This document shows, in pieces, positions 14,357-25,087 of a stretch of 64,000 nucleotides of DNA (position 1 is the first letter of the stretch; each line of letters begins with the position of its first letter). The notes below the pieces were generated by a model that was given only the letters and a program-made list of their open reading frames with translations, ran no database searches and had not been told where the DNA came from. This stretch comes from Phyllosticta citribraziliensis (Eukaryota). Both the position numbers and the translations under genes were made by a program. Location: NCBI RefSeq assembly GCF_038025025.1, contig NW_027117343.1, positions 2,232,001 through 2,296,000 on the forward strand, read 5' to 3'.

Positions 14357-17300
14357 TTACACCACAATCAGGTTGCTGATTCTCAGCCCTTGGCTTTCAT
14401 ACCACCATCGCCTCCGCGTCCCAACTCCTATCGCCCTACTCAACACCTCGAACGTTTGTTCTCCGCCTCCCACCATGACCAAGGGGATCGGGTGTGGTCT
14501 CTTGATGCCGCCAGGCAGCGTCTGCTCCTCGTGTAGAAATGGTTGCACAAGATCGGCGTCCGGGTCTTCGCCTCCGTCTTGCTCGGGATAGCTGACCATG
14601 ATGACGAGCTGGAGCGACTGCGGCGACGGAGGAAAAGCCGGAATGTTAGCTAGCTTCTCGGAAAAGGAGCAGCCGCCTCGTTTCAACACTATAATCTGGT
14701 GTTCTTTTGGTATGTTGGGTGCCAGACGGTCGCCGCAGTTGTCATCGCCAAGGTAGATTTTCTGCCAAGGTAGCTTCTTGTCGTTGGTCGAAAATTCCTC
14801 GCCTCCTTTTCCTGACGGCGGGGGCACAGCTCCCGGTCCAGTCGACAGAGTGGCAGAGTATTGAATCCGGTGTACGCGGCGGCCTTTTCCGCTATGCTTT
14901 TGCTTAGACGATTGCCCTTTGTCCAGCAGTTTCTTCTGCGGGGTTGATGGTCTTGTCAACGGCTCGAGGCCCTCTGTCAAGATGCTCTGAAAATTCTGGA
15001 GCAGGTTGGAGAAGAGCGAAGGATTCACAGTCTCCAAATCGACCCCATCAGCCAGCGAAAGGGACACGTCCGAGGAATTCGTGTCCAATTCAACTCCACT
15101 GAGTCCAAGTCTCTTCGATGCCAGTGCAGCCGCCGTTTTTTGAGTGACCTCGGGAGCGTCAATGAATAGGTCCAGCGTTGTCAAATCTCTGGTTCTCGTG
15201 AAATAGGGGTCAGCTGGGTTGAAGCTCGACATGAGATCTCTTGACATGAAAACCTTTTCGTCTCTTCCCAGTGCCACATTTGAGACGGCATAAATCCTAA
15301 ACATATCATTGGAAGACTCGCCAGCCTGTGATTCCAGCCTTTCAGATTCTCGGACCATGCCCAGACGGAGACCGCTCATCGAGTTGACCATGATGCCTCC
15401 TCCAATTCGCTGAAGGGTGAGAGTATTGAGCATGGCATTCGGCAGATTCGGGAAGGACAAGTCGAATGTTGTCCGAGCTACCATCCGAGAGCTTGTTGCA
15501 TTGTGCGGCACGAGCTGCGGAGGTAAGGTCCAAGGAAAGTACGTATAGTTGGAGGGCGAGTGGAGATCCGATAACGAGATGCTTGGGTGGTCGGTCGTAA
15601 ATTCGATGAGAGGAGACTCCGAGGTTGCTCGATTTGGCATCAGATGGAGACGAGCCAAGCTCGCGGCATGGAAAACGTCATCTCGTGCGGCAGTGGCCGA
15701 TATCGTAAACGGAACGTGGGCCGGAGGAAGGGGACATTGCGCGGTGGAATCCTCCGATTGCTGCCTTCCCAAGTTCGATGTCCGGAAGGTAACGTTTTGA
15801 CGAAGATGCTTTGGCATGATTAGAGGGTGACCCTCGGTGGTGAATACCCACGGCGCGTCGACTTGATTCAAAGGGTGGTCATTGTCAAACAAAAGGAAGA
15901 GGTACTTGGCGGTTTCACCCAAGAAGAAGCTCTCCATCCGATCGCTCTTTTCACCTGACCTTACATCCTGCAAGCCAGCCCATCCACAGCTAGTCCAGCA
16001 GCGGCGCTTGATGTCTCTCAGCGCCATCTCGCCGACATGGAGATACCAAGGATCTCGAGTCGCTCGGTAAAGATACCAAGTAGACTCGATGAACTCTGGC
16101 CGACCGCCCCACCAGCGAAGCCCCATTTCTATATTTCCTGTCGCAGTGGACCAACGTTCCGGAAGGGCAGAATAACGAGTCCACAGAGCCGTGTACAAGA
16201 GATGTGTCTCTATGGCTTCATCCAATTCTCCGGCAAAGGTGAGCAAGCCCGGGTAGTACGCGCTCAAACTGTCGATCCAGAATGCTCGCATGGCTCCCGT
16301 ATAAAGATCGACTTGGATGTAGTGAGGATGTTGGTGCATAGGACCCCGGTAAATGTGTCGCTTAATCCCGGCGTGGGATTCCTGCCACACTCGCAAGAAA
16401 GCTTCAGGAGAATCGCGGTCCTCATTTGGATCGGAAGGAAGGCCCGAGAGGAGAACGTGGGACTTGAAAGCGTATTCGAAGAAGCTGTCAATGCCGGCTC
16501 CGATCCCAGTGTACGGACTGACCCATTGGCCTGTTTCTGCGTCTATTCCGGAACCAATCAAGCCGGAGCTGCTTCTCCTCGACCATATCGCCCAGAACGC
16601 CGCCTTTCCAAACTTTTCAAATGTTGGGTCTCCAGTAAGTCTGCTCAGTGTGGAAAACTCGAGCACAAGACTGCCAGCACCGGCACTGCACGTTTCTGTG
16701 ATTTCGGGCGATTCGTTGGACGCTGCTTGACACTGGCCGTGTTCCGCGTCCGTATTTAGCGGCGAGTTGGCGTAAAACGGAATCCCAGTGCGCAAATTGA
16801 CCCTTGGATACGGGATTCCCGTCGGAGTGTGGAAAGCTGGCAGTATTCGTTCGCCCAGATCTTTCGCTAGGCGCAGCAGCTGCCCATTGTAAAAGAAGCC
16901 TCCGGGCCACTCGATGCCGCTTTCACCATGCTCCCTCTCGGCGACCTCGGCCTCATATCCGCGTATTGGCAACTCTCCTATCGCAAACAGATGGGCGCTC
17001 AGCAGACCGCCAAGCCCTCGGATGACCGTCTCGAATACCTGGACCTTGCTATCCAAGTCGAAGCCTTTTGCTCGACTCCCTTGACCAGCAGGTCCCTCGG
17101 ATCCATCGCCATAGTGTTCGACAAACAGCTGGACACCGTTCTGAAAGTCACCCAGAGGATCCCTGCCACCGCTTGTGCCTGGCGAGGATGCAAGAATGGC
17201 GAGAGTAGAGAGACTGTCAATCAAGGTAAGGGAGTAGTTGCCCAAAACATCGTTGACCTCGATATGGGCTGGGTTGGCGCGGTCCCGCGTGAGGGAAGAG

Positions 17301-17601
17301 CAGGAGAGGGGGCGAAGCTCATCTTCGGGAAACGCGTGCTTCATGTAATTATCATATCCATGGTAAAAGATGTCTGTCGTTTCTTGCCTGCGCGAACAGT
17401 GAGCTTCCAGGAGGACCAACGGCGGCGCGGAGACTTGTACTTTAAGTTTCGGAGTAGCTCATCAGTCATGCATGTTGACAGCGCCACGCATTCGAGCAGC
17501 CAGAAAACGGCTGTCCACCTGAGACCTCGCCAACCGGGTGCGGAATTGCTGGCGCGAGGATTAGGTGCGGCCCTGCTCAGCGCCGGCCAAAATGACAGCA
17601 T
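14357..17601 (-). CDS. MNL1: GH47 ER degradation-enhancing alpha-mannosidase-like protein (EDEM/Htm1) with C-terminal PA domain
   Basis: Motifs YMKHAFPEDELRPLSC, LTLIDSLSTL, VFETVIR, GAGIDSFFEY, RPEFIEST, MESFFLGETAKY and FTTEGHP. PA motif LKRGGCSFSEK. One 5' intron at about 17440-17388. Start codon uncertain. Confidence 0.9.
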
Positions 17602-17912
17602 ACCCAAGGGATGGCCCGTAGAGACGGCATGGGAGAGGCAGAGGGACTGGAGAGATGAGCGTAATCTCCAAGCTCCACCGGTGGATCAAGATGGAGAGAG
17701 GTTGGGGAGAGGACAGATAGGTATCCTAGACATGGATGTGGATGGATGGGGTTTGCTTTGACGTAGCCTCAAGCTGCGGGTCCGCGCGTGGCCCGTGCTC
17801 TGAAATTCTGAGAGTACCGCAACTACATCGTCATCCGATTCCGCCTCCACTTCACAACTCATTCCATTATCTCTCCTTCTCCGCTCGTCGCGCCAACCCA
17901 ATCGCCCCAGTG

Positions 17913-19587
17913 ATGCTCCCGCGCGCAGCTCTCCGCCTCGCTGCCGCCCGGCCGCTGCTTTCGGCAGCTCCTCGAGCACCGCCGGCTCTGTGGTCGAGAG
18001 GCTACGCGAAGAATCGCGCGCCCAACTCCAACCCGTCAGGATCCGCTCCCAACTCGCCCCGAAGAACCTCTCCCTCGACCTCCGACTCTACCAAGCAGGC
18101 TGCAGAATTCAACCCCAAGGCATCCGCAGAAAAGAATACTGCGCCGCAGTCACAACCCGGTCCTGGCGCAGCCGCCAAAGATGCCACGCCTGGAGAGGAT
18201 GCCACAGCAAGCGAGCCACAGCAGCCAAAGCAGCCGCTGCCAGATTTGACGCAGGGCATTCCATCTACCTTTGAAGCCGAATTCCTCAAGTCCACGCCCG
18301 AGTCCAAAGAAAAGGCGCCAGAGCCATCTCTGAACGTGACAGAGGATCCAAATGCAGAGGCGGAGGCCGGTGGTCGTGGCGGCGGCGAGGGCGGCGAACT
18401 TCCCAAGTCCGCGTACGAAACTTCGACAGACAGGCGACGGGACCGCTATGCAAAGCTGACCGGAATTGCATCGATACTGTTCCTAGCTTCGGGGGGACTG
18501 TACTTGGCCAGGCCTTGGGAATCCGAGCAGGAGGCCAGACTATACCCCGATATTGAGGATGGGTGGTCACCTTCAACCCTTTATGCTCGTGCCAAGGCCA
18601 GACTGTCTGGCTCGCTTGGATACTACACCGAGCCTGTCTTTCCCAAGCTGTTGCCTCAGGTCGACCCTGCGCCTCCTTACACGCTTGTTCTGAGTTTGGA
18701 AGATCTCCTCATCCACAGTGAGTGGACTCGCGAACACGGCTGGAGGTTTGCCAAGCGACCTGGCGTCGACTATTTCCTCCGCTACCTCTGCCAGTACTAT
18801 GAGCTCGTCATCTTTACGAGCTTGCCTTCTCAAGCTGCAGACCCTGTCATCAGGAAGCTTGACCCATTTCGCATCGTAATGTGGCCACTGTTCCGGGAGG
18901 CGACGCGCTATGAGAAGGGTGAATACATCAAGGTAAGCTCTCGCAATTTCGAACGACGGCTCACGTTAACTTTGTCAGGATCTCTCCTATCTCAACCGCG
19001 ATCTTAGCAAAACAATAATCATTGACACCAAGGCCGAGCACGTCAAGAATCAGCCCGAGAACGCCATCGTCCTACCTCCATGGAAAGGTGAGAAGGGTGA
19101 CAAGGGGCTCGTCGCTCTCATCCCCTTCCTGGAATACATTGCAACCATGGGCATCAGCGATGTTCGGAAAGCCATTGAATCCTTCGAGGGCAAGGATGTT
19201 GCCACGGAATTCGCCCTCCGAGAGGCCAAGGCACGGGAAGCCTTCCAGAAACAGATTGGCGAAAGCAAGAACTCGAGCTCGAAACGGGGTGGCTTTGGAA
19301 AGCTCGCCGGAGCATTGGGCATGAAGCCTCAGCCAGCCCAAGGTAGCCTTCTTGTGGGGGAAGAAACTGCGTCAGAGGGCTTTGCCAAGGGCAAGATGCT
19401 TTCAGACCAGATCCGCGAGCGTGGGCAAAAGCAGTACGAAATGATGGAGAAGGAAATTCGTGAGAATGGCGAAAAGTGGCTCAAGGAGATGGCAGAGGAG
19501 GAGAAGAAAGCCCAAGAAGAAATGACCAAGGGCATGAAGAGTGCCGTGTTTGGGGTGTTTGGCGGTGGAAACTCTGAATCAAAATGA
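17913..19587 (+). CDS. TIM50: Mitochondrial inner membrane translocase subunit Tim50 (2 exons)
   Basis: Arg/Ala-rich presequence, one TM segment, and an NIF domain (YTLVLSLEDLLIHSEWTREHGWRFAKRPG, LFREATRY, KDLSYLNRDL across intron 18932-18978). Confidence 0.95.
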
Positions 19588-20274
19588 GTTGGCTAGTTCG
19601 CTCTGTTTGTACATGCTCAGCGTAATCATTTGGGGAGTTGATTAGGTCTCTAGGGAACTCTCGATTGTGCGAGTCCAAAAGACTTGGGTTATCACCGAGT
19701 CCACGATGCAAGATGCATCGCTTGTACCATATAGCAAGAGGGCAAAATCACAGGCGACGTCACGGCGTCAAATCTTTACTCCTGATTTGGGGCGTCGATG
19801 GATGTGGTGTTGAAGCACAGCGCCAACCAAAGCTCAGAGGCCGGCAGGATGACACCGCGCAAAGCAGAACATTGTACTGGAAACAATGACATTCTCGTCT
19901 TTTGCCCGAATTCCGTCAATTCCACAAGTGGTTTTGGCACTGCTGACAACCTTTATGTTTCTTGACGCATCAACGTGTCGGCTAATTTGATTTCCGAGCA
20001 GCGCGTCGCCAACTGCTTGCGGCTAGCCTATTTCCCAAAGGGATTGGGATCCCTTAGTAAGAGGGCGTCCACGCCTCGGAATAAGCTGCCACTTCTGGGG
20101 CGAGCTTACCAGGGGAAAGCGGCAGTGACTTTTCCCGCCCGATACGCAGCGACGCCTTACCTGATTTCCGTCTTCTCCTCTCCCACCGAATCCTGAAAAC
20201 GATACACCTGTATCGTAACAGTCTTGTAAACCCGCTGCTCACAACCGCCGCCGTCCAAAGGTAATCGGCACGCC

Positions 20275-21834
20275 ATGGTAGGATCCAACTCCAGCCTTTG
20301 ATGCCACCTCACTGACAGCCGCCAGGGGAGGGTATACTGCCATGCTCCGTCGCCGTGTACAGTCCTGGCTAACGTCTTAGCATGCAAACGACCTGATCAA
20401 GAATGCGTTCCAAGAATATACAGACGCGACCAGTCCATCCAAGGTGAGCCCACGTCGCTCAGTCGCGTCGCGCGTCGACTAACAAGTCGCCCAGTGTGCA
20501 AAAGTCAGATGCCTCCATTGTGGTTTTACACGCGCAAAGAACACCACACGCCAGATTGAGCACCTGCAATCATGTCAGGCCTACTTGAGCTCTCCGGACG
20601 CCATGCCGTACCTACAAAGCAACAACAGGGACAGCACCGGTGGCAGTGGCTCAATCGATCCCACCATGACGCAGGAAGGCACTCCCAACCGTAGCATTCT
20701 GAATGGAACGCATCCGAATCCGAACCTCCAAGTCCACCGTCGGGGACCCAACACGAACAAGCGATCGCGTGAAGGTCAGCCCATTGCACCGCTGCCAGCC
20801 CCGCCGCCACCCCCACAACAACACCCGTCGCTCGTGGCACATCTCTTGAACAAGTACCAGGCCTCATTCACGGCCTCAACACAACAACCGTTCCTTTCGC
20901 ACGCTGGCTGTGGAACGCTGTCTGCGCCAGCGCTGTGCCAGTGGCTCGTCCAAGATGCGCACTATGCGCGTGGATACATCAGGTTCATTGGCAACATGCT
21001 GGCCAAAATCCGGCTTCCCGTTGTTTCCAACAGCCAATTCAACCAAACTTATCGCGTCATGGACCTGCTCATCAGCGCTCTGAATAACATTCGGCGAGAA
21101 ATGACGTTTTTCGAAATCACCGCGACCAAGTTCGGCCTGCAGATGGCGGAGGAGCCACCGAATCACATTACCCGCGCATATCTCGACTTGTTTGTCAGTT
21201 CAACCAGCACGGGAGCGAGTCTGCTGGAAGGTATGGTAGTACTGTGGGCCACGGAACATGTGAGTGACCCTTGACTGCTCGCCACAAGCCACTCGAGAAG
21301 CTAAGACGAACCTAGTGCTATCGAACCGCCTGGACCTACGCCGCATCATTCACGCCCACCCTCTCCATGCCGTCTACCGACCCTCACATAGTCGCCCTCC
21401 ACCAACAGCTCATCCCGAACTGGACGTCTGCGCCCTTTTCGAAATTTGTCGACGCCTGCCGCCTTCTCGTCGACGAGCTCGCCAACACGACCACGTCTCC
21501 AAATGGCAAAGAAGAAATGCAGCGATGTGAGCAACTTTTTGAGCAAGTGTGTTGGCTCGAAGAGCGGTTCTGGCCCGATGTAGATGGCATGGGCGAAGAA
21601 GACGAGACGGCCCGTCTCACTGCCCACGGGGCCCATCACACGCATTCGGCTAGCGCTGCCGCCCACACACATCCGACTCACGCTCTCAACTCTGCGCCAG
21701 GCGTGGGCATTGGAAACGGACCTTTGGGCAACGGCATGGGCGGCACGGAGACGCCGTCACGCGACTCGGGCAACTCGTTTGGCGGCGCCTTGAACGGCAT
21801 CGAAGCTGCAGCCAACGGTACGCCGTCTGATTGA
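20275..21834 (+). CDS. BED-like zinc finger fused to a TenA/THI-4/PQQC (PAB1642-like) domain, about 451 aa (5 coding exons)
   Basis: Exons 20275-20277, 20326-20331, 20381-20443, 20495-21259 and 21316-21834 with canonical introns. N-terminus MGRHANDLIKNAFQEY..KVRCLHCGFTRAKNTTRQIEHLQSC. TenA motifs QPFL..GTL..WLVQD..Y, WATE.CY..AW, NWTS..F and LEERFWP. Confidence 0.82.
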
Positions 21835-23093
21835 GCCTGAACAGTGAAGTCTTTGCAGCAAGGAGCGGCTCTGGTCTAGCTGACGGATGAAATTCGCGTG
21901 TGACAGGGGACAGTTGCGACGTCGGCGACGATGGCACTCCAGCGGCGGTCGAAGAAGACGGGGACGACATTGCGGACAACGAAACCGAAGCGATCATTAT
22001 GGGGGATCAATGACATGATCTTGCCATTTACTTCTCGTTTGTCCGGGAGCACACGTCGTTCTCTGCACCGGAGATTGCCGTTGTCCCTCTCCCCCTGTCG
22101 ACCCCTGATCTCAGGTCTTTTCGGGGCATCATCAAGTCTAGGCCTGCCTCTTTCTTTTTTCAGGACGTCGGTGGTGCTCCTTATGTTTCCTTTCCCATTG
22201 GCTGGCTGCCAATACATCATATCTCTACTCTCCAGTCGAGCTTGCAGCCATGCATCATAGCGTCTCTGCATTCTCTTATCCCCCTTCCTCTTCTCGTGAT
22301 TCTCACGTCAAGGGCGAAAAAACGGTTTCGGACAATATTGGCATAGGGTGTGTCATAGGGCGTTTGCATTCCACGAAACGGGCTCGTTTTGACTCGTTCG
22401 TTGTCCAGCAAGATTGCGCTATACAGCTGGGCCGCCGGGTTGACCTCAAAGCTCTTGTTGAACCTTTCCGGTCAAAGCCTGGGTCGAGCGTTTGAATTCC
22501 ACAAGAGTACCGGAGAGCTGCCTGATCTGACCACCAAAAGGTGGGAGGTTCTGCCTCCGCCTGGCGAGTCAGCCTGTCGTCCCTTTTCTTGACGTACGTC
22601 GGCCTCGCGCGCTACTGTATTGTGCGGTTTCTCTCTGCCCTCTTGCTCTTTTCTTTCTTCTTTTCCCTTTTCTTGTATCTTTTTCCATACATTTCACACG
22701 TCGGGCGGTGGGCTGGGTAACTTGTGGGTGTTTGAAGGACAAATGGACGGATAGGGCGACGGATGGAAGGTTAGGCGGATAGGAAAATAAGAATATCTGG
22801 ATTGCCACGATGCTCGTTCAGGCAAAATTCAAAATGCTTGGTCTGCTGTTTCCTACTTGTGTTTGACACGTCTGCGGTCTCTGTGGGTGCGAGACATGGA
22901 TAATGGGCTAGCACGCGTGTGGTCTCGTCTCCTTTGGGCACTGCCATTTTCACACGAATGGTCATTGTGACAGGTGAATTGGCAAAAAAGGGCGACTGAC
23001 TGGCTAGCAAACCAGCCGAGTGAGAAGCTTTTTCATTGATTTCTAATCTTTCCTACGTCTACCCCTGTCATCAACCTCCTAGATCCCCCTGGC

Positions 23094-24892
23094 TCATGCC
23101 TTGCTCGTGGCATTACTCACCGGCACGCCATTCCAAACAGTGCCGTACGGCGTGGCCGGATAGTCGCCAAAGCAACTCCACTCGTACTGAGCCTCCTCAA
23201 GCTTGCTCTTCTGCGTGAGCATCCACGTCTCCAACTCGCACCAGCCGTCGTCGCGGTACTCGCATGCGGCGAAGCTGGGGTGCAGCGGCAGCGTGCGCTG
23301 GTTCAGGATGAAGTGGATGTACTTTGTCGGGGCACCCGTGGTGTTGTAGAAGCTGGCGGAAGAAGACGACGGGTTGAAAGGACGGCGCGGCAACACGGGG
23401 TGCGGCGCGTCGATGATTTCGATATCCAGGCGCGCGGCGAATGGCGCGATGTGGCTGACGATGAGCGAGCGGTTGGCCGTGTAGTGCGTGGCGGGCAGGA
23501 GCGGCGCGAACTGCGTGAAGCCAAAGGCCGTCAGGAACGACATGATGTCCGTGTCGTGGCTGAAGTCCAGATTGAGCGCCTGGTCGAGCGGGAACGTCGC
23601 CGTGTTGTTGTCGAGCGTCACGTTGACCTGGGCCGTCGGCGTGTCGATGAGGTGGTGGTTCAGTCGCGCCAGTAGCTCGACGACCCACGGGATGCCGACG
23701 GCGCGGCCGGTGGGTGATTGGAAGGCGTTGTTGCCCGCGAAGTTGATGTCGATGCTGTATTCGTACCCTACCCATTCGTCGTATGTGAAGAGACCGCAGA
23801 AGTGCGAGAAGCCCAGCCCGACGGTTTCGTACGCGCACAGTGTCTGTGCTGCGTATGTGTCGTCGACGGTCCAGTCCCAGCCAGAGATCTGCTTGCGAAT
23901 GCGCTCTGTTGCGTTGGCGAGGTAGATACTCGCCCACTGCTCGGTAGCTTGGGGTCAAGTCAGTGCCGGCGTCAGGGGGAAGAATTGGGTGGACCTACCA
24001 TTGGTGCCGCCGTAGCTGACCTCCAGGTTCGAGTTGGGGCAGTTGTCGTATCCGGCCAAGCTGTTGTTGTAACCATCTTCTTCGATGATCAGCTCCAGCG
24101 TGGCGTTCTGCGTCCACCCGAGCCCGAAGAAGCCGGCTAGGAAATACTCTGCGGACTGCGTCATGCGGTCTTCAGTGGTCGAGCGGACCAGAATCTTGGA
24201 CCCATTGTTCGGGTACAGATGGCCGTACTGGTAGTAGTGCAGCACGCCCGAGTCGAAGAGCCTGCTTGATTAGTCTCGCATCATGAACGCTCCTTATTGG
24301 TGTTGGACGTACTCTTGATGCCCAAGGGGCACTAGGATTTCGTATCCAAGCCTGTACTTGTAGTCGTTTAGAAAAGCCAAGTCGCCCGTGGCGTTGAATG
24401 TCCCGGTCCTGTTTTCTATCTTTTGGCCAAGAGTCGCAGAGTAGCTCTCCGGGTACCTGCTGCCATGCCGGTGCAGCATGTGCAATTGGCTAATGTTCGT
24501 CCCAGGAGGCAGCGCATATTCGTCCACTCCGAAACCGTCCGGGTTGGGGAAATAGTGGCTCAATTGGCCCATGAGCTGGAAGATGTTGGCATTCTCCGTA
24601 TTTCCGGCAATTGGAATCTGCGTCTCGATTGGCTGGACGGGAATGTACGAGACGCCCGAGAAGGGTGCAATGTTGGTTTGCGCCAGGAACGGTGCGTCTC
24701 CAGTCTTGGTTGGGCCTGCATCAGATGGATCAATTGATGGCTCGACTCCTAAGCACCGGACATTTGACCTGCGAAGAGCTCCGGGCTCGTTTGGAAGTAC
24801 TGAGGCACTTCGGTCGAGGAAGGCGTTGCGACGTTCGCAGCGTCGGCATACGAGCCGACCGCCGCGGCGATGAGGGCGCTCCTGGTGAGCAT
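23094..24892 (-). CDS. Secreted histidine acid phosphatase / 3-phytase (4 exons)
   Basis: Signal peptide, catalytic HRHGSRYP and FSHD motifs, plus PQYFQTSPELFAGPT and PFAARL. Confidence 0.92.
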
Positions 24893-25087
24893 TTTCTTGC
24901 AGACAGCGCTTGGAATTTTAACGCCGAGGACGCCGTCGGAGATGAGGCCTTGGAAGAAACGACCCATTGCCAGTGCAGCGATTGCACGGCATTATATGCA
25001 GAAGAAAAGCACGTCCAACATGGTACAGGTACGAGTCGAGGTGCAGCGGGGAGTGGAGGAGCTCAGCGAGCTGGAGGCAGTCCCTGG

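Follow-up and report, generated by a model that had tools for sequence, protein, structure and literature searches.

A real, expressed fungal gene that couples a zinc finger to a TenA-fold domain was found at positions 20275-21834 of the forward (+) strand in a 64,000-nucleotide (nt) stretch of Phyllosticta citribraziliensis DNA (NCBI RefSeq assembly GCF_038025025.1, contig NW_027117343.1, positions 2,232,001 to 2,296,000). The whole of this stretch is called the window below, and all positions are given in its numbering. The TenA fold itself is known; the architecture that holds it here is conserved and has not been described before, and a new role for it is plausible: judged from its sequence, the gene may be an undescribed small-molecule-sensing gene regulator. 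An initial annotation of the window had proposed that a zinc finger is followed by a basic, Pro-rich linker and then by a TenA-fold domain, and this architecture proved correct and conserved. Joining of the exons gave 1356 nt, equivalent to 451 codons plus the stop, with the N-terminus MGRHANDLIK. The best match in the protein databases was the 'uncharacterized protein' P0004 of Phyllosticta citriasiana (455 amino acids), with 95% identity over a 255-residue query from exon 4. In P0004, 434 of the 451 residues of the spliced model were identical, and both proteins begin MGRHANDL.

The window sequence holds open frames at 20483-21274 and 21316-21834, which take in the last two of five exons, all on the + strand. 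Exon 1 (20275-20277) is the ATG alone, with a GT donor directly after it, and gives the MGRH N-terminus as in annotated orthologs; exon 2 (20326-20331) is a 6-nt micro-exon, GGGAGG, encoding Gly-Arg; and exon 3 (20381-20443) encodes HANDLIKNAFQEYTDATSPSK, in which helix 7-12, the first strand (13-17) and the conserved Phe13 of the finger lie. In exon 4 (20495-21259) the finger ligands are followed by the linker and by the TenA-like domain's first half, and exon 5 (21316-21834) carries the second half of that domain, a disordered His/Gly/Asn-rich tail, the motif NSFGGALNGIEAAANG and the stop codon TGA. The four introns (20278-20325, 20332-20380, 20444-20494 and 21260-21315) are 48, 49, 51 and 56 nt long, all run GT..AG, and carry CTGAC, CTAAC, CTAAC and CTAAG, respectively, as a branch-like element near the 3' end. 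Because one exon and open frame (20495-21259) runs from the four zinc ligands through the basic patch and Pro-rich linker into the first half of the TenA domain, the fusion is independent of splicing. Intron 3 contains an in-frame TAA and its removal is therefore required.

Splicing was followed in assembled RNA contigs from four runs, two with the same organism label (X1 and X2, 0 mismatches) and two from plant-metagenome RNA sequencing (X5 and X6, 90-95% alike). Intron 4, which the initial annotation had not listed, was removed in 4/4 runs. The three introns that it had listed fared differently. Intron 3 was confirmed, being removed in X1 (0 mismatches), X5 and X6, with the X2 contig starting downstream at 20610. 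Intron 2 received partial support: the X6 contig used the donor 20331|20332, at the 3' boundary of the micro-exon, and joined at 20384, skipping 52 nt and landing 3 nt past the proposed acceptor, which may reflect a sequence difference in the relative or an alternative acceptor. The X1 contig stopped exactly at 20380, the proposed acceptor end, and the X5 contig began inside intron 1 at 20311 and retained 20311-20441 unspliced. Splicing of intron 1 was seen in none of the four runs; X6 read through 20284-20331 and no contig extended to 20275. Contig cover was absent over 20000-20283 in all four runs, which are uninformative on the transcript 5' end. Among 37 listed exon-4 differences between the window and the relatives' contigs (36 further differences stand outside this list), 33 were at third codon positions, including both of those inside the finger.

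The micro-exon start was supported by proper splice signals and by the orthologs of Phyllosticta, Lasiodiplodia and many Pleosporales, in which MGRH is annotated as the N-terminus. When intron 1 is retained, the frame is closed by the in-frame TGA at 20299-20301, and no in-frame ATG follows from there to the finger. Three alternative starts were considered and rejected: ATG 20342 runs into TAG 20378-20380, and ATG 20301 and ATG 20382 each meet a TGA within a few codons. The 5' introns of 48 and 49 nt split the coding start into exons of 3 nt and 6 nt, and were retained or differently spliced in the relatives' contigs. Since retention closes the frame, inefficient or regulated splicing of 20278-20380 could set the amount of full-length protein. 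In the public model of Phyllosticta capitalensis (P0005), 20 additional residues stand between ...SPSK and CAKVRC, at the site of the window's intron 3, and Val replaces Cys at the intron-4 junction; these deviations are probably annotation errors, because both introns are removed in RNA contigs that are 90-95% similar to the window.

The CCHC zinc finger (20408-20587, residues ~13-55) is split by intron 3 and has the ligand pattern C30-x2-C33-x13-H47-x3-C51, with Cys30 encoded at 20510-20512, Cys33 at 20519-20521, His47 at 20561-20563 and Cys51 at 20573-20575. Conservation of the finger Cys and His residues in orthologs, on which the initial annotation had staked its call, was complete in alignment A2, where the ligands were fixed in 37/37 homologs. 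In the same alignment R29, G34, K39, N40 and Q44 were likewise invariant, and F13, E15, D18, K24, C25, V28, R37, A38, T42, R43, E46, L48 and L55 were conserved at 90% or more. Polar residues at the start of the finger helix belong to both classes (K39, N40 and Q44 invariant; R37, T42 and R43 at 90% or more). The motif C-x2-C-x13-H-x3/4-C was present in 96 of the 230 family proteins compared, many of the others being truncated gene models or finger-less relatives. AlphaFold2 was applied, with A2 as the input alignment, to P0159, a naturally truncated ortholog, and placed residues 11-70 at a predicted local distance difference test (pLDDT) score of 91-93, with a helix at 7-12, strands at 13-17, 26-30 and 36-38, and helices at 41-56 and 58-73. 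The same finger elements were found in the full-length model at pLDDT 71-80. The finger as modelled is C2H2-like beta-beta-alpha with an extra N-terminal strand and Cys2-His-Cys ligands (beta-beta-beta-alpha). Mycosphaerellales-type members contain a second, upstream finger, C-x2-C-x15-H-x3-C. It was counted in 17 proteins, and 16 of these (P0072, P0075, P0076 and P0087 among them) have both fingers; it is followed by a conserved W-R-x-x-G-N-G-Q-D-L-A-P motif and is absent from the window's protein.

BED fingers are recognized by C-x2-C-x(n)-H-x(3-5)-[H/C] zinc ligands after a conserved aromatic residue, a signature found here as C30-x2-C33-x13-H47-x3-C51 in 37/37 homologs with F13 upstream at 90% or more. 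Pfam zf-BED (PF02892) was by far the commonest finger-type match (17/37 members at an expectation value (E) <= 1), followed by Zn_ribbon_5 and Fer4_RLI with three members each. Its scores were 12.0 bits on P0004 and 10.6 bits on the window exon, with a family maximum of 16.2 bits (P0104, E 0.011), and the cutoff of 20.6 bits was reached by 0/37 members. A Foldseek search of the finger model against the Protein Data Bank (PDB) gave 0 matches at E <= 0.001; ZBED3 stood at rank 23 (E 1.6, target-normalised template modelling (TM) score 0.58), and in these weak structure matches BED-type and RNA-binding fingers tied. Language-model Atlas look-alikes of residues 1-68 scored 0.86-0.87, where at least 0.9 is needed for more than a lead, and included the clusters zf-BED, zf-BED_2 and zf-C2H2_12. 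When the profile of the whole-protein alignment A1 was run against PDB sequences, all four matches were TenA chains and none was to the finger. The BED label of the initial annotation thus stays a resemblance, in ligand pattern, aromatic residue and weak zf-BED matches, and fell short at the Pfam cutoff and in the Foldseek search; the finger is best described as a BED-like CCHC finger, its membership of the BED family being unproven. The suggestion that it was a domesticated transposase finger gained no backing from finger-only word searches, which returned one match among longer proteins (the ortholog P0037) and seven among shorter ones, all apparently ortholog fragments. Such searches are blind to distant fingers, which rarely share exact five-residue words, and are weak evidence against a transposase donor.

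The C-terminal domain (20825-21576, split by intron 4) is, as modelled, a clear all-helical TenA (heme-oxygenase-like) fold. Pfam TENA_THI-4 (PF03070, cutoff 22) reached 39.9 bits with P0004 and 24.4 bits with window exon 4 alone, upholding the TenA-domain call of the initial annotation on both the ortholog and the window, and matched 25/37 family members at E <= 1. The closest solved relatives by sequence were PF1337 of Pyrococcus furiosus (1RTW, E 2.8e-10) and At3g16990 of Arabidopsis (2F2G, E 2e-4). The model had pLDDT > 90 over residues 139-366, and Foldseek gave target-normalised TM scores of 0.88-0.90 for 1rtw (E 1e-8), 0.87 for 2f2g and 0.84 for Bacillus subtilis TenA (1yaf), with yeast Thi20 also among the matches at rank 15.

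In the HMMER alignment, the Cys of 1RTW LYCEE stands opposite the Ala of LWATEH. We infer from motif position that this 1RTW Cys is the nucleophile and corresponds to B. subtilis Cys135. Across the family the nucleophile-aligned column holds A, G or S, and a different Cys lies four residues on (C282), present in 75/89 members of the finger group. Proteins of the TenA_C and TenA_E types are distinguished by the active-site cysteine (Cys135 of B. subtilis TenA) according to PMC10277260, and TenA_E enzymes act on the formylamino and amino derivatives of hydroxymethylpyrimidine (HMP) according to PMC10470507. The window protein is, by this alignment, not of the TenA_C type, because Ala aligns with the 1RTW Cys. 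The initial annotation's statement that such domains bind HMP-type compounds would, for this protein, be an extrapolation from distant enzymes.

Four pocket positions were placed through the 1RTW HMMER alignment in P0004 numbering (window numbering is 2 lower), and are those that we take to be equivalent to Asp44, Tyr47, Glu205 and Phe208 of B. subtilis TenA. The window protein has Asp, Tyr, Glu and Phe at these positions. TenA_E proteins, although Cys-less, are characterised by keeping the catalytic Glu (the counterpart of Glu205) and the Asp and Tyr that bind the pyrimidine. In all four columns the canonical residue was less conserved in finger-bearing than in finger-less proteins: D180 in 68/91 versus 101/111, Y183 in 52/93 versus 95/113, E363 in 38/80 versus 91/107 and F366 in 49/82 versus 91/107, where the denominators count the five commonest residues at each column and the finger-less group contains some truncated orthologs, which blur rather than create the contrast. 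Near-fixed in the finger group only were H162, C165, H182, R185, S220, K238, H281, H305 and N338.

Low pLDDT marked two stretches of the P0004 model as disordered, the linker (residues 69-119) and the tail (374-455). Within the linker lies a conserved motif, PNPNLQV-H-RRGPN-x2-KR-x-R (PNPNLQV-HRRGPNTNKRSR in the window's protein, 20714-20770), whose basic patch resembles, and may be, a nuclear localization signal. The tail is of low complexity, His/Gly/Asn-rich in the window's protein and acidic in Mycosphaerellales, and ends in a conserved short motif, NSFGGALNGIEAAANG in the window's protein (21772-21819, near the end of exon 5) and DSPYGGTGLGA..AAN in others. The consensus in alignment A1 was S-F/P-x-G-G-x-x-x-G-I/L-x-A-A/V-x-A-x-N, with the remaining tail disordered and fast-evolving. 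A partner protein may dock at this motif.

Conservation of the finger-TenA gene across the class Dothideomycetes was indicated by sequence searches. A word-indexed protein search gave 86 homologs at E <= 0.001, the named sources of which were all Dothideomycetes. With P0004 as the query, an exhaustive HMMER search of 1.84 billion representatives returned 504 matches at E <= 1e-3, of which 321 had E <= 1e-10 and 108 had E <= 1e-30. The top matches spanned the finger, and most others were ~250 amino acids long and matched residues ~137-370 only; named finger-less examples came from Aspergillus californicus, Sarea resinae, Hymenoscyphus varicosporioides and Cladophialophora yegresii. For the domain, a maximum-likelihood tree was built by quick search from 179 rows covering at least 80% of the domain, drawn from 230 proteins, with support by the Shimodaira-Hasegawa-like approximate likelihood ratio test (SH-aLRT) only. 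All 89 finger-bearing rows fell on one side of a branch of length 0.55 (SH-aLRT 100). The clade so defined comprised 100 rows, the remaining 11 being without a detected finger and most of these apparently truncated models.

Two Eurotiales proteins, P0100 (Penicillium lividum) and P0112 (Aspergillus spinulosporus), carry the finger-TenA architecture and nest in a Mycosphaerellales-type subclade (SH-aLRT 97); the remaining Eurotiomycete homologs are finger-less. This placement hints at horizontal transfer or assembly contamination. Database labels of orthologs read 'heme oxygenase-like', 'Thiaminase-2/PQQC domain-containing' or 'hypothetical'. Two Pyrenophora proteins are labelled 'TenA transcription activator' and 'transcription regulator', which go back to the old naming of TenA and are not evidence: according to PMC10277260, the name 'transcriptional enhancer A' came from an early reading of overexpression effects, and the protein was later shown to be thiaminase II.

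The TenA-like domain was also found joined to helix-turn-helix (HTH) domains. P0131 (609 amino acids, from a European Nucleotide Archive record) contains HTH_ABP1_N (E 5.7e-15) and HTH_Tnp_Tc5 (E 1.9e-12), which together form a CENP-B/Abp1-type DNA-binding pair, followed by a basic stretch and then TENA_THI-4. In P0120 the Tc5 HTH is partial (E 7e-4), and P0150 has a weak HTH with sub-cutoff matches to Sigma70_r4_2 (1.4e-4) and HTH_SB (6.5e-3). The three proteins cluster together outside the finger clade (SH-aLRT 84). Such HTH-TenA fusions are rare, a second instance rather than a recurrent pattern.

The genes around 20275-21834 look ordinary on the upstream side, where a GH47 alpha-mannosidase (14357-17458, - strand) and a TIM50-like NIF-domain gene (17730-19587, + strand, with an intron near 19007) were found. 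Downstream lies a histidine acid phosphatase (23094-24917, - strand), detected as His_Phos_2 on two open reading frame pieces (E 5e-32 and 2.8e-6). The thiamine-repressible acid phosphatases of yeasts are members of the histidine acid phosphatase superfamily.

The reading that we favour, at a probability of roughly 45%, is that the gene encodes a nuclear, sequence-specific nucleic-acid-binding regulator in which the TenA-like bundle has been turned into a ligand-binding or regulatory module. The finger would read a fixed DNA motif and the basic patch would carry the protein into the nucleus. The TenA-like bundle would no longer be a thiaminase and would instead bind a small ligand, for which a pyrimidine-like thiamine fragment is the first candidate and a metal or redox ligand is possible. 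Ligand binding would then gate the activity of the disordered C-terminal tail, making the whole protein a one-polypeptide sensor-regulator. This one-component idea gains indirect support from the existence of the HTH-TenA fusions and from the lower conservation of the pocket residues in the finger clade. Several observations weigh against it. The finger reached neither the zf-BED cutoff nor a significant Foldseek match, and the A1 profile found no finger among PDB sequences. The start codon rests on exons of 3 nt and 6 nt, the first intron of which was not seen spliced in the contigs. The pocket-aligned Asp, Tyr, Glu and Phe are kept in the window protein, which may still be an enzyme. No thiamine gene was present among the neighbours (GH47, TIM50-like NIF and histidine acid phosphatase), and a search for Rfam families, including the TPP (thiamine pyrophosphate) riboswitch, gave 0 matches at gathering score in the whole window and 0 at E <= 1 in 19500-22500. 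A second DNA-binding domain at E <= 1e-4 was found in only 1/144 representatives scanned (P0131), and P0131, P0120 and P0150 are metagenome gene models that could represent merged genes.

A rival proposal is that the protein is a Cys-less hydrolase in the style of TenA_E, acting on amino-HMP, formylamino-HMP or a related aminopyrimidine, with the finger and basic patch serving only to target it (to the nucleus, a nucleic acid or a partner) or to regulate it. The TENA_THI-4 score above cutoff and the fold matches to real enzymes, including At3g16990 (2f2g, E 2e-4, TM 0.87) and yeast Thi20, would fit such an enzyme, as would the retained pocket residues and the adjoining histidine acid phosphatase gene; Cys-less TenA_E proteins are active salvage enzymes, according to PMC10470507 and PMC10277260. 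Within the finger clade, however, the pocket varies (D to E/N/Q/H, Y to I/M/V, E to W/A/G), an unusual pattern for a conserved enzyme; the fusion is followed by a long branch, HTH DNA-binding domains have been joined to the same domain as well, and the neighbourhood lacks a thiamine gene. On balance we consider a hydrolase a serious candidate, if a doubtful one. It is unlikely that the finger binds RNA or protein rather than DNA, so that the protein would act post-transcriptionally or as an adaptor: BED-type and RNA-binding fingers tie in the structure search, but the Pfam and Atlas leads indicate BED-type fingers and the parallel fusions involve DNA-binding HTH domains. Least probable by far is that the N-terminal extension is a gene-model artefact, with translation starting at the Met in ...SPDAMPYLQ and the finger not made. 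The unseen splicing of intron 1, the partial support for intron 2 and the position of the first in-frame ATG of the long exon, after the finger, would all fit an artefact; against it, 37 homologs have the finger residues unchanged at the protein level, both finger-internal differences to relatives are at third codon positions, the splice between exons 3 and 4 is covered by RNA contigs, and the MGRH start is annotated in many orthologs. A small chance was left for readings other than the nuclear regulator and these three.

A wider form of the sensor-regulator reading, which we offer as speculative and rather unlikely to hold in full, is that a new type of eukaryotic one-component transcription factor has arisen two or more times in filamentous fungi, by the placing of a DNA-binding module of transposase-associated type (a BED-like finger in Dothideomycetes, a CENP-B/Tc5 HTH in a sister lineage) before a retooled, non-catalytic TenA domain that senses a thiamine-derived pyrimidine or another ligand. 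If true, the coupling of DNA-binding modules to a eukaryotic TenA-fold domain would put the fold to a new use, and Pezizomycotina would gain a protein-based vitamin or metabolite sensor alongside TPP riboswitches. Filamentous ascomycetes rely on TPP riboswitches and are not known to have a protein sensor of thiamine or pyrimidine. The family spans a class with many crop pathogens and black yeasts, in which the gene is well conserved and single-copy-looking. Full-text literature searches of main articles outside subscription journals returned no paper on the finger-TenA architecture.

Compared with known systems, the putative regulator would share with one-component regulators, such as bacterial ligand-binding transcription factors and nuclear receptors, the combination of a ligand pocket with a DNA-binding module on a single polypeptide, but it has no homology to any of them. 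Its finger resembles BED fingers (PF02892; ZBED2, PDB 2DJR; ZBED3 in 9L4J) in the ligand pattern C-x2-C-x13-H-x3-C, the upstream aromatic residue and a predicted beta-beta-alpha core to which one more strand is added N-terminally. The CENP-B/Abp1-type HTH-TenA fusions (P0131 and P0120) belong to the same fungal TenA-like family and have an N-terminal DNA-binding module of transposase-associated type, a basic stretch and a short linker; they differ in that a helix-turn-helix replaces the zinc finger, in forming a separate clade, and in numbering one clear and two weak cases among 144. With TenA and thiaminase II proteins (PF03070; PF1337, 1RTW; the TenA_E protein At3g16990, 2F2G) the window protein shares the all-helical fold (TM 0.87-0.90) and a Pfam score above cutoff, and with TenA_E also the lack of a Cys at the presumed nucleophile position. 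In contrast to these, it adds ~135 N-terminal residues (finger and linker) and ~80 disordered C-terminal residues, shows 14-22% identity to solved TenA proteins, and belongs to a clade in which the pocket-aligned residues vary and conservation falls instead on His, Cys, Arg and Lys residues particular to the clade. Yeast Thi20 (HMP-P kinase plus TenA, PDB 3RM5) is likewise a fungal multidomain protein with a TenA domain; its partner is a kinase of the thiamine pathway, and it is hence a pathway enzyme, whereas the partner in the window protein is a zinc finger.

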